A program made the translations under genes and the position numbers. The notes beneath the pieces are model-generated. The model was given only the letters and a program-made list of their open reading frames with translations. It did not search any database and was not told where the DNA came from. Positions 54,202 through 58,960 of a stretch of 64,000 bases of DNA are shown one piece after another (the stretch's first letter is position 1; each line of letters begins with the position of its first letter). The DNA comes from Pristiophorus japonicus (lineage: Eukaryota), in NCBI RefSeq assembly GCF_044704955.1, contig NC_091983.1, positions 120,838,001-120,902,000 of the forward strand, given 5' to 3'.

Positions 54202-55331
54202 GTATGTATTATAGTAACTGTGCTTGCTTTTAGATTTCTGCCAATTTCACAGTGCAACCAGCATGCTTGGATAATCATCAGTCAACCCTGAAGCGTGTAT
54301 GATATATTCCTCTACTGAGGCAGAACTGGCTGTTTCAACTGCTGTCTGTCGAATTACAATTGTTTAGTAAAAGAGACAAATGGAAGATTAGTTTAGCACA
54401 CAAATTATTTTGAAAGAAATCTGACAATTCCACAACAAAATAGTTAGATACATAAGTATTCGAAGTTACAGGTTGTGTACTGATATAACCTGGTATCAAT
54501 TTGCTGTAATTACTTGACTGATTTTATAGTGCTATTTAAAATCTTAACTGTCCCCGGATGAGTCTTCAATATCACCATATTATAAATTCTAATGGGCCCG
54601 ACAGTGGTTTACTTGTCTGGCACGGTTTAGCAATTGCTTAAGTAAAGCTTCGCACTGAGAATGAAAGATATCCTGAGAGGCCAGATGACAATCTCTTCTT
54701 TTGAGTTGTTGGTAGCGTTAATACTGAATGAAATTCTAACCTGAAGTTCCTGTAACTCGGTCAGTTCAGGGTGTTTATCAGAATACCAAATTAAGGCGAA
54801 TTTGAATGTGGATGAGCCTACTCCATAACAGCATCAGCAGAGAGTGACAAATATTGCTGAATTGTCATTTGGCTTATCCCACTGCAAACTCTCTTCCCAT
54901 CATGCTAATTGTTGATATAAAGCTAAATGAAAGGCACCAACATGAGAATTGGATAGAAAGCAAAAAACATGAGCATGACTATGCTGTTCTCCCTTTACAG
55001 TCACTAACAGCCTTACCAAGCAGGTTTGCTGTCCAGCTAGAACTATGCCCGATTTTAACTTCAGGTAGATTCTCTGCTCAGGCCTGAGTTAAAATTACAG
55101 ACGTGTCTTAAGGATATCATCAGGCCGCAACATGCATGTATAAAGAAGGACCCTGTTGTCTCTGGGTGCATATCCTTGCTGCCTGGTCAGGAGAGCAGGT
55201 TAAAATTGCAGCGGCTGCGATCATGGCGACTTTCAGACAGGTAAGGGCCAGGGCGATTTTTATTGCCCACCCACCAGGTTTCTGCTGAGCGAGTAGGATT
55301 AAAATCACCCCATGTCCACTATGATCCAGCA

Positions 55332-56746
55332 CAGGGGTGGGCAATCATTTATCTTGGAGGGCCACTTAACAAGCTTTGGTAAGCTGTTGAGGGCCACAGG
55401 TGCACACATCAAATGAATTGCGTTAGCAACAGTACCATTAACATTTTTTATGGCATTTATTGTATAAAAGAACCCTTCATGTTATTTCCACACTAAATAA
55501 AAATAACAATGCTTATTAACATGCTAATAAACATGATACAGATTTATAAGTCGTATTGAAAAGCTCCCAATCTGTTTATTCCAAATGGTCTAAATTCATT
55601 GTTCTAGTGGAAAATGAGAGATCGATTCTACTTCCACTGGCAATTATAAACAAGGTATAAGGCACAATCAAGGATAAAATCATTTATGCAACCTTTAAAA
55701 ATTGCAGATGAAAGTTCTACTTTGATGCTTTTGAAACCTCGCGACAAAATAATTAGGTGACTCAGAAAATGATTTATACTGCAAATTTGCACCCTTCACT
55801 CCTGAGAAACGCCAAGATGCCTAGAGAGCTCGTGGACTTTCACTTGAGAATGAGCACAAGTAATGCAGCATTATAATACACATTTCTTCCTTGAGTACCA
55901 TTTATTACTGGGATTGGTCAAAGACATTAATCTCTACAACCTTCTTCCAGTCATGACAATAAACTTAAATTGTTCATGCTAAGAGGAAAAAGGGCTTACA
56001 TTAAAAACAGTGAATGCAATGATGCAATGTCCAATATACCCGGATCCATTTAGTTATGTCTCCACTATGATAATTAATTGGGATAATATTAAAATGAGTA
56101 AATAATTATACAAGAATTAATAACCCCACTAACAGTCATTGGTTAGAGCAAAGTGTAAAATTAGTAAATTTGAAACAGGCTAATTTGTAGTGTTGATCAT
56201 TATTCCCACTTCTACCCTCCTAATAATTTATAAACATAAATTCAAATAGTAATCAGATACTATTTTAAATACTCAAAATGTAGTGTAAAATAGTAAAATC
56301 TTGCATCACTAAATGAATTAAATGATTGATTATATGTTGTACTGAAAGTCTATGTGGTTGTTTGGCAGAGCGGTTGAAGTCTGCAGGGCCTCCAACACAA
56401 GAGGAGTTCTCGTTTTAGTGTGCTGAGTATGGAAGCCCGAGGCTTTGCATGGCCTGAATTGCAATAACGTGCCAGTAGCTGGAGTTCTTGTGCTCTGGGA
56501 TCCACTCCCATGTCTAAAGTGGCGATGAGAACTCCCCTGCCATCGTACTCTGGGTACTGGGAGAGGAAAAATGCAGCGTGGTTTCTTTTTCCGGTAAAAG
56601 GGTGATCAAGATGAACCATAACTCAACTCAGACTAGTGTGCAGCTGGAGCTCCGGTTCGCACTCTATTTCTGTCCCATCCAACGGGCTGGATAGAATGCA
56701 CTGGCAGGCCGCATACAGCCCATGAGCTGTATTTTTCCCACCACTG
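55332..56746. mobile_element. Non-autonomous hAT (Charlie-like) DNA transposon
   Basis: TIRs CAGGGGTGGGCAA / TTCCCACCACTG and subterminal GAGGGCCAC/GGCCGCA motifs. The 8-bp flanks ATCCAGCA / ATCTGGCA are 6/8 identical, each one change from ATCTAGCA. Confidence 0.8.
56479..56600 (-). pseudogene. TPP2: Fragment of tripeptidyl-peptidase II N-terminus, one frameshift
   Basis: [40 protein letters not shown] compared with vertebrate TPP2 [41 protein letters not shown] (recalled from memory). Confidence 0.88.
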
Positions 56747-56867
56747 ATCTGGCATGTATATCAACACAAGAATGAATACAACACTGGATCTGCATCCAGA
56801 TATTTTTAGTTGGCATGTTGAAAGAAATACAGTGTTTGCTTAAACTAGAAGTGGCTAACTCAAACTT

Positions 56868-57700
56868 CATAGAATCACAGAATAGTGCAGCACAGAAGGC
56901 GGCCGTTCGGCCCATCGAGTCTGCGGTGGCTCTTTCAAAGAGCAATCCAGTTAGTCCCACTTGCCCGCTCTTTCCCAATATCGCTGCAATTTTTTCTCTT
57001 TCAAGTATATATCCAATTCTTTTTTGAAGGCGACTATTGAATCTGTATCCACCACCCTATCAGGCAAATCCTAACCACTTGTTGCATAAAAAAGCTTTTT
57101 CTCGCGTCGCCTCTGGTTCTTTTGCCAGTCACCTTAAATTTGTCCCCTCTGGTTATCGACTCTTCAGCCATCAGAAACAGTTTCTCTATTTACTCTAAAT
57201 CCTTCATGATTTTAAACACCGCTATCAAATCTCCTCTTAGCCTTCTCTGCTCCAAGGAGAACATCCCCCAGCTTCTCCAGTCTATCCATGTATCTGAAGT
57301 TCCTAATCCCTGGAATCATTCTGATAAATCTCTTCTTACCCTCTCCAAAGCCTTCACGTCCTTCCTAAAGTGTGATGCTAGAACTGGCCATAACACTCCA
57401 GCTGGGGTCGAGCTAGTTTTTTTATTTAGGTTTAGTAAAACTTCTTGGGCTTTTGTACTCTATGCCTCTATTTATAAAGCCCAAAATCCCATAACCTTTA
57501 TTAATTGCTTTGCTAACCTGTCCTGCCATCTTCAAAGATTTGTGCACAAACTCTCCCAGGTCTCTCTCTTCTTACTTCCCCTTTAAAATTGTACCAATTA
57601 GCATGTATTGCCTCTCCTCATTCTTCCTACCAAAATGTATCATCTCACAATTTCTTGCAATGAATTTAATCTGCCATGTGTCCACCCATTCCAGTCTGTC
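56868..57700 (-). mobile_element. CR1 LINE 3' fragment
   Basis: Reverse-strand CR1 3' UTR (CATAGAATCACAGAA...GGCCGTTCGGCCCATCGAG) and decayed ORF2 C-terminus. Confidence 0.85.
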
Positions 57701-57704
57701 TATT

Positions 57705-58960
57705 CTAGAATCATAGAATGCTTACAGCACATAAGGAGACCATTTGGCCCGTCGAACCCTCTGTAAGAGCACTTCAGCTAGTCCCACACCACTGCTCTTT
57801 CCAGTAGCTCTGCAAGTTTTTTTTCCTTCAGGTACTTATCCAATTTTCTTTTAAAAGCCACAATTGAATCTGCCTCCACCACCCATTCAGGCAGTGCATT
57901 CCAGATCCTAACCACTCGCTGCGTAAGAAAGCTTTTCTCCTGTCACCTTTAGTTCTTCTGCCAATCACGTTAAATCTGTGTCCTCTGATTCTCGACCCTT
58001 CCGTCAATGGGAATAGTTTATCTCTATCTAGACCCCTCATGATTTTAAACACCTCTATCAAATCTCTACTCAACCTTTGCTGCTCTAAGGAGAACAACTG
58101 GAGCTTCTCCAGTCTATCCACGTAACTGAAGTCCCTCATCCCTGGAACTGGTCTTGTAAATCTTTTCTACACCTTGGCCTTCACATCATTCCTAAAGTCC
58201 GGTGCCCAGAATTGGACACAACAGTCCAGTTGAGATTGAACCAATGTTTTATAAAGGTTCATCATAACTTCCTTGCAAAATAGTGAATGCATTTATGAAG
58301 CCCAGGATTCCATATGCTTTTTTAACCATTTTTTCAACCTGCCCTGCCACCTTCAACAATTTGTGCACTTATTTCCCCAGGTCTCTCTGTTCATGCACTG
58401 CCTTTAGATTAGTACCCTTCAGTTTATAATGCCTCTCCTTGTTCTTCCTACCAAAATGTATCACTTTGCACTTTTCTGCATTAAATTTCATCAGCCACCC
58501 TTCTGCCCATTCCACCAGCTTGTCTATGTCCTCTTGAAGTCTATCACTAGCCTCCTCACTGTTCACTATACTTCCAAGTTTTATGTCATCGGCAAATTTT
58601 GAAATTGTGCCCTGTACACCCAAGTTCAAATCATTAATATACATCAAGAAAAGCAGTGGTCTTAGTACCGACCCCTGAGGAACACCACTATATAGCTTCC
58701 TCCAGTCTGAAACACAACTGTTCACCACTACTCTCTGTTTCCTGTCACTTAGTCAATTTCGTATCCATGCTGCCACTGTCCCTTTTATTCCACTGGCTTC
58801 ATCTTTGCTGGCAAGCCTATTGGGTGGCACTTAATCAAACGCCTTTGGAAGCCCATGTACACCACAACAACTACATACCCTCCGCAGCCCTCTCTGTTAC
58901 CTCATCAAAAAACTCAATAAATTTAGTTAAACACAATTTGCCTTCAACAAATCCATGCTG
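57705..58960 (-). mobile_element. CR1 LINE fragment (RT to 3' end)
   Basis: SGVPQGSVLRPLLFLMYINDL...ISKFADDIKL...FNAEKCKVIHFG and DRLEKLQLFSLEQQRL. Confidence 0.92.

Follow-up and report, generated by a model that had tools for sequence, protein, structure and literature searches.

A first-pass annotation of one hAT copy in the shark Pristiophorus japonicus had proposed that the element picked up, and may have amplified, the 5′ end of the host gene TPP2; alignment to the native locus and comparison of family copies support both steps. This copy lies on contig C7 of the 5.92-Gb genome, in a 64,000-nt window, i.e., the whole stretch of DNA analyzed here (NC_091983.1, positions 120,838,001 to 120,902,000). 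In the history that we favor, with a probability of roughly 0.85, the interior of a TPP2-free parent transposon was replaced through template-switch repair and the product was then amplified in trans, with TPP2 as a passenger.

Ends and layout of the window element

The left TIR (CAGGGGTGGGCAA) starts at 55332 and the right TIR (CAGTGGTGGGAAA, as reverse complement) has its last base at 56746. The two agree at 11 of 13 positions, compared to 12 of 13 in the family consensus, and the flanking octamers are identical at 6 of 8 (Table 1). In an inverted-repeat search, this TIR pair was absent from the 25 longest of 58 inverted pairs. Taken alone, the TIR/TSD pair of the window copy is weak evidence, and we therefore settled the question through a family-wide census, gathering full-length copies with end profiles and comparing their flanks with shuffled pairings. 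At least 6 of 8 positions agreed in 19 of 35 copies in one set (shuffled mean 2.2, maximum 7) and in 27 of 38 in another (mean 2.7, maximum 9), i.e., in 46 of 73 full-length copies when about 5 would be expected. The signal was specific to 8 bp, with a mean identity of 0.65 vs 0.22–0.31 for lengths of 5, 6, 7, 9, and 10 bp. Right flanks carried T at position 4 and A at position 5 in 31/35 copies each (first set) and TA at positions 4–5 in 30/38 (second set), and the two TSD copies of the window element likewise appear to point to an ancestral site with TA at these positions. The hAT-type TIRs and near-matching TSD first noticed here were thus correctly placed and are real at the family level rather than coincidental. 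Since TSDs are distinct for each copy and sites are unlinked, the family became multicopy by transposition. Helitron ends carry neither TIR nor TSD, and a capture of the Helitron type is ruled out for this family by its TIRs and 8-bp TSDs.

Between these ends, the element has a Pack-TIR structure, i.e., a 215-nt and a 65-nt arm of one parent element, from its 3′ and 5′ ends, respectively, around ~1.14 kb of other DNA. The left arm shares 164 of 188 aligned bases with parent locus L276 and 173 of 205 with L278, and similarity ends at 55546. The interior had been described as free of recognizable transposase, and tblastn with five related transposases indeed found no similarity in the element’s parts; Rfam yielded no match within 54500–57600. 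A 121-nt filler next to the left arm had no match in five parent loci and only short, chance-level matches in 60 kb of native TPP2 DNA; it is possibly ancestral TPP2 intron sequence later lost from the native gene. Another stretch of ~90 nt would reflect either a deletion in the native intron or an insertion into the element. High-copy repeats lie on both sides of the element (54977–55309 and 56861–58960), and the one on the right presumably resembles a shark SINE/LINE end.

Table 1 Features of the window element (positions in the window; native coordinates relative to C10:91368948 as 0)
Feature	Position	Strand	Basis or remark
TSD, left copy ATCCAGCA	55324..55331	.	Flank comparison and family census
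hAT arm: TIR (55332-55344) and subterminal sequence; parent 3′ end, downstream of the transposase gene	55332..55546	-	
121-nt filler between parent arm and TPP2 intron 1	55547..55667	.	Also in long copies
Captured TPP2 intron 1, native +859 to +221	55668..56289	-	74.3% over 669 columns, E 3e-127
Stretch of ~90 nt common to long copies; present native intron has 18 nt there	56290..56378	.	
Captured start of TPP2 intron 1; donor GT to CT in window copy	56379..56478	-	
Captured TPP2 exon 1, coding part from ATG	56479..56619	-	141 nt vs 162 native
Captured TPP2 5′UTR, 66 nt upstream of native ATG	56620..56685	-	Within 73.6% block, E 2e-52
hAT arm: parent 5′ end; TIR 56734-56746	56682..56746	-	56682-56685: putative 4-nt microhomology with TPP2
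TSD, right copy ATCTGGCA	56747..56754	.	Flank comparison

Genomic origin of the TPP2 piece

The minus-strand frame at 56601–56479 is TPP2, with 3lxu as its sole PDB match at E ≤ 1 (E = 1.2e-6; 177,635 sequences). The first-pass annotation had recognized this frame as a match of ~40 codons to the TPP2 N-terminus; the frame stands, yet its extent was under-called, as the capture spans 55668–56685. The genome holds two TPP2 genes, on contigs C10 and C6 (Pfam PF12580), and the window peptide matches the first exons of both (among 113 matches, with 150 of 535 candidates scored). At the DNA level, element positions 1048–1354 align with +203 to −117 of the native C10 gene (73.6%) and positions 337–958 with +859 to +221 (74.3%). 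This alignment to the native locus, suggested earlier as a check, is colinear through 5′UTR, exon 1, and intron 1, for a captured total of ~1 kb that starts with 66 nt of 5′UTR, continues through exon 1 and its donor site, and includes ~750 nt of intron 1. The included intron indicates a capture from genomic DNA instead of a retrocopy.

The C10 gene is a real multi-exon gene, with the next exons found within the following 40 kb and 80–93% identical to zebra shark TPP2, and no further TPP2 exon was detected in the window. Among vertebrates, its exon-1 peptide is best matched by sharks and rays (87–94%); the overall top score belongs to a gastropod protein (76%). The C6 paralogue was ruled out as a donor as it has no DNA match to the element. 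This second, divergent TPP2 gene (C6:66.17–66.28 Mb; L032, L033, L035, L067) has introns and a first exon with an intact ATG, an LDSG motif, and a donor site; its exons are 48–66% identical to zebra shark TPP2, vs 80–93% for the C10 gene.

The subtilisin-type catalytic Asp motif does lie within the captured piece, as had been stated, while the form LDMG is a decay product of the window copy (ACG to ATG) and the family consensus reads LDTG. We take the piece to hold only the Asp motif of the TPP2 catalytic triad; the His motif sits in a later exon, outside the captured piece.

Copy number and subfamilies

A DNA search with the element returned 1,670 candidates, and the 40 that were scored include copies of 72–89% identity spread over many contigs. 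For a genome-wide count, we used short exact words. One such word, 18 nt from the left end, was found 214 times in the genome and its reversed control never. Of 49 copies identified by other means, 11 hold it exactly, which gives ~950 left ends (95% interval 580–1,800), an estimate that leans low because the calibration copies were high-scoring ones. A 17-nt exon-end word has 70 exact matches, one of them in the native gene (reversed control, 0). Of the 52 loci that cover this site, some of which were counted in two sets, 13 hold it unchanged, corresponding to ~280 copies with the 3′ end of exon 1. Among the first 40 left-end-word matches, taken as an unselected sample, 32 carried TPP2 sequence and 31 exon sequence, so that the TPP2 piece is a property of the family and not of the window copy. 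Overall, we conclude that TPP2-bearing copies number several hundred to about a thousand, a count that the first-pass annotation had called for. Groups of near-identical copies (L020, L022–L030; C9:203.9–222.9 Mb with L262, L263, L274, L275) apparently arose by segmental duplication after insertion.

Unselected copies differ in later additions. A nested MITE of 110–180 nt in the left arm occurs in 32 of 40; it has inverted ends of its own and, in long copies, an 8-nt duplication, and is absent from the parent and from the window-type long form. Inserts B (~200 nt, 28/40) and C (~290 nt, GC-rich, 2/40) sit no more than 2 nt apart in the captured UTR. In the dominant 0.9-kb form, insert D (~175 nt, 22/40) stands in place of the exon 1 end and the first part of the intron, and the combined B+D type makes up 22/40. 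By structural parsimony, the order was probably capture, MITE, B, deletion, and D.

All loci examined for a source of the inserts lay within family copies, namely 30 loci of 736 candidates for B, 30 of 103 for C, and, for D, 14 among the 40 scored of 912, numbers at which a single-copy source could be missed. The insert D consensus frame has two fixed stops, and nothing was recognized by eye in the B and C frames. At the MITE site, the window copy has 6 extra nucleotides (55395–55410), which most of the 13 listed copies without the MITE do not share. This pattern resembles a hAT excision footprint, and the MITE may have jumped out of the window copy again. Separately, L181 (C1:464400279–464405278) and L195 are short derivatives in which two left ends face each other, and L181 is a ~210-nt MITE that arose from this family. 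A minisatellite with a 25-nt period has expanded beside the TPP2 exon in several C-type copies (L135, L139, L143, L146, L155, L159, L160).

The TPP2-free parent

Eight of the 40 unselected left ends were without TPP2, and three of these were parent-type (L199, L167, L176), the remainder being truncated or deleted derivatives. L199 combines both TIRs and a 7/8 TSD with the remnant of a transposase, and the left arms of L167 and L176 continue as in L199. A search with the unique part of L199 yielded 66 candidates, four of which were read: L276 retains, besides the left arm, a decayed transposase that extends from the zinc finger to the C-terminus and a right arm whose tip is missing; L278 combines the left arm with a partial transposase; and the stretches of L277 and L279 that were examined showed only transposase. 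TPP2 is absent from all five parent loci (L199, L276–L279).

In a full phmmer search, the L199 remnant matched 19 proteins at E ≤ 0.001, relatives being named GTF2IRD2A-like or DUF4371; a Spin-doc zinc finger was found in 3 of 11 relatives scanned and a hAT dimerization domain in 1 of 11. The top phmmer match was discarded as a repetitive, unrelated protein, and Pfam, a word-based search, and PDB gave no match for the remnant. Judged by these similarities, the parent is an element in which the family's ends enclose a decayed GTF2IRD2-like transposase, probably the cognate one for the family. TPP2 runs in the same direction as the lost transposase did. Where the parent's 5′ arm meets TPP2, the element consensus and the native gene share CCGC, a putative microhomology read from the element consensus since the two parent copies have diverged there.

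The 8-bp TSD, the nnnTAnnn target, the short TIRs, and the parent’s transposase place the element among non-autonomous Buster-type hATs; its 13-bp TIR falls in the 5–27 bp range of hAT TIRs. The part of PMC3517528 drawn on here gives Buster elements an 8-bp TSD with nnnTAnnn, and the family resembles them in this TSD, in its short TIR, and in the GTF2IRD2/Spin-doc-type transposase of its parent. Unlike Buster transposons, the window element is without transposase, a distinction made against such descriptions, and a Repbase or Dfam name may exist.

Other routes to a parent failed. None of 30 loci examined among 97 hAT dimerization-domain matches shares the element ends. Searches with the right end, taken from a B-type copy, led to TPP2-family copies at 30 of 30 loci. 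With element positions 1–339, 29 of 30 loci ran on into the TPP2 intron and one was cut by an LTR-retroelement-like insertion, this search being biased by a query that held the 121-nt filler found only in the TPP2 family. Four hAT-domain loci (L232–L235) with open frames of 660–788 aa and without this family’s ends are intact or domesticated transposase genes.

Frameshift and decay of the captured exon

We aligned the cargo of 65 copies after setting aside 10 near-identical segmental duplicates. A single I/V change separates the consensus exon peptide from the native one, and native and consensus sequences differ at 2, 0, and 6 sites of codon positions 1, 2, and 3, a pattern indicating that native TPP2 stayed under selection. 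All 19 copies whose alignment covers the exon start in a single block are without 13–19 nt there (17 nt in 14 of 19), and the 17-nt deletion breaks the frame from the ATG. The captured exon was frameshifted before the family expanded.

Across 40 DNA-retrieved copies, 194/2275 zero-fold (0.085) and 61/651 four-fold (0.094) sites were changed (P = 0.53), so that the exon decays neutrally, with the TPP2 piece as a passenger. A simple pN/pS over the 65 copies, including protein-selected ones, was below 1 (0.54, or 0.63 without CpG), which we read as transition and selection bias. With a frameshift before the expansion and neutral evolution, the catalytic Asp has no functional meaning in the element. 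The donor GT is intact in 50 of 65 family copies and lost in the window copy. Exon 1 of the window copy has a 3-nt deletion, the family-wide 17-nt deletion, and a private 1-nt deletion, and its 89-codon frame is open only because the last one compensates. The 89-aa frame had no Pfam match and no like-sized homologue, the latter being weak evidence.

Another shark, Mustelus asterias, has at least five annotated loci in which an intact TPP2 exon 1 is joined to a non-TPP2 exon (LOC144486592, LOC144499587, LOC144499588, LOC144499441, LOC144487260; proteins P0002, P0007, P0121–P0125), known from proteins only. As these are without the 17-nt deletion, TPP2 exon 1 seems to have multiplied independently in that shark.

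Age and presence in other organisms

Copies stand ~8–9% from their consensus: 0.088 for the intron (0.059–0.146, n = 40, CpG excluded), where the native gene stands at 0.090, and 0.080–0.081 for the B and D regions. Whale shark and zebra shark differ by a dS of 0.061–0.111 over about 50 million years, according to the portion of PMC13100897 used here. With this rate borrowed from other sharks, the expansion would date to roughly 75–145 million years ago.

In sequence data of four other organisms (three studies; 4 of 19 listed runs), the element was covered by many contigs and its unique left flank by one or two, about 10% diverged; summed contig depths over the element are not copy numbers. 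Contigs in X7 (56651–56883) and X9 (56663–56898), from two of these organisms, bridge the right junction, and hence the window insertion predates those splits. Among the joints shown, no contig from other organisms skipped the element. The family is now a fossil Pack-TIR.

Discussion

Our preferred history starts from a Buster-family hAT that would have lost its transposase gene and received in its place, in the same orientation, ~1 kb of the C10 TPP2 5′ end. This probably happened in the course of repair synthesis, through a template switch at a short microhomology during gap filling or at a stalled fork. Since the new element kept both ends, the parent’s transposase could have moved it in trans. 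A founder with the 17-nt exon 1 frameshift would then have expanded to hundreds of copies, and its descendants would have acquired the nested MITE along with inserts B, C, and D and shed the greater part of the intron. The absence of the 121-nt filler and the 90-nt stretch from present native DNA makes a single clean capture less certain. The same absence means that the native locus may have lost DNA, as required by a local capture in which a pair of parent elements, or a single one that had hopped nearby, flanked the TPP2 5′ end and moved the DNA between them as a composite before their remains were deleted. Such a route is proposed for plant Pack-TYPE elements in the consulted part of PMC8903248. 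We nevertheless consider it unlikely: a search of 10 kb around exon 1 and 40 kb downstream revealed no element arm beside native TPP2 at E ≤ 0.01, a fixed insertion at the 5′ junction, which lies within the 5′UTR of a conserved gene and 66 nt from its ATG, would presumably be costly, and the arms are internally truncated parent ends, as interior replacement predicts. That the TPP2 piece entered an ordinary hAT later as a retrocopy or segmental duplicate, or that the ends are there by chance, might be read from the imperfect TIR and TSD of the window copy and from the TPP2-free elements with the same ends, yet is refuted by the family data with a negligible residual chance: the intron is retained, junctions and exon deletion are identical in copies on many contigs, each copy has a distinct TSD, and the 17-nt exon word matches the genome exactly at 70 places vs none for its reversed control.

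In the preferred history, TPP2 is a neutral passenger. Instead, the CpG-rich 5′ end could have helped the element, as a promoter or a shelter from silencing, or small RNAs from the copies could act on TPP2. Exon sequence persists in 31 of 32 TPP2-bearing unselected copies while most lost the AT-rich intron, TPP2-bearing copies outnumber parent-type ones by 32 to 3 among 40 left ends, and bat Helitrons that carry 5′ gene ends attained higher copy numbers in the account of PMC4224331 available to us. However, retention can be a founder effect of one short subfamily (B+D, 22/40), and copies lose CpG as methylated DNA does (mean 11.6 over 18 rows, some repeated, vs 24 native). The native exon keeps a CpG o/e of 0.92 and has no excess of third-position change (6/37, P = 0.22), and capture gave no rise in copy number in maize, as far as the portion of 10.1101/777037 used here goes. 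A benefit from the cargo thus seems improbable to us, if marginally less so than local capture. We are just as doubtful of a broader scenario in which the element was a serial collector of three more host fragments (B, C, and D), each founding a new wave, outgrew its parent through the CpG-island 5′ end, and left about a thousand potential small-RNA sources against TPP2. Serial capture alone is close to an even bet.

The mechanism is known; what is new is its scale, unreported for vertebrate TIR elements in the literature found. In the sections of Tan et al. 2021 considered here (PMC8277862), a survey of 100 genomes lists four multicopy Pack-TIR cases, with 3–5 copies in the examples, a median captured length of 224 bp, and no Pack-TIRs in elephant shark. 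The TPP2 family resembles the multicopy vertebrate cases of that survey, such as Pack-hAT-N8_XT (CAPSL 5′UTR, Xenopus tropicalis), in having genomic host DNA between hAT ends, a parent gene on another chromosome, distinct TSDs, and a captured GC-rich 5′ end; it differs in its hundreds of copies, ~1 kb cargo, and old age. The survey’s filters, as given in those sections, ask for at least 90% identity and a unique best match to the parent gene; a Pack-TIR as such has 100–5,000 bp of other DNA between its ends, a range that includes the ~1.14 kb of the window element. Here, the window copy is 74% identical to the native gene, other copies score higher, and subfamily consensuses reach about 90%. 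The identity and best-match filters would exclude the TPP2 family, making the contrast in copy number partly one of method. The failure would reflect age and not mechanism, and the family otherwise appears to fit the multicopy Pack-TIR class.

Closest in cargo and scale is HelibatN3 of Myotis lucifugus, which carries NUBPL (Pritham and Feschotte 2007, as described in the relevant part of PMC4224331), i.e., the 5′UTR, first exon, and part of the first intron in about a thousand copies, and whose relatives show sequential additions as in the TPP2 family. However, HelibatN3 is a rolling-circle Helitron with a promoter, while ours is a cut-and-paste TIR element in which only 66 nt of UTR were seen. 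Plant Pack-hAT and Pack-MULE elements are likewise non-autonomous TIR elements with host gene fragments, and in maize the largest Pack clusters (>100 elements) are hAT and PIF (PMC8903248, sections used); those are plant elements, ours a vertebrate Buster-type hAT. We found no description of the TPP2 family in the literature, Repbase, Dfam, and subscription journals lying outside the scope of this search. TPP2 is not mentioned in the main text and 12 supplementary files of PMC8277862 or in the main text of 10.1101/2025.06.08.657570, and PMC5753468 matched through its reference list only.

The TPP2 copies appear to undergo neutral decay only, and a function of the copies has no support in this analysis. 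In the survey sections cited above (PMC8277862), gene capture by vertebrate TIR elements is mostly single-copy. Families such as this one may have been missed because they are old and high-copy: they fail filters for young duplicates and are probably absorbed into de novo repeat libraries, with the possible effect that the genuine first exon of TPP2 is masked as well. For 5′ gene ends, mass amplification has been documented in bat Helitrons and in plants; here, a vertebrate hAT is seen to reach that scale. Slow shark evolution has preserved the donor gene, the parent, and the subfamilies, so that the junctions and probably the order of events can still be read ~100 million years later.
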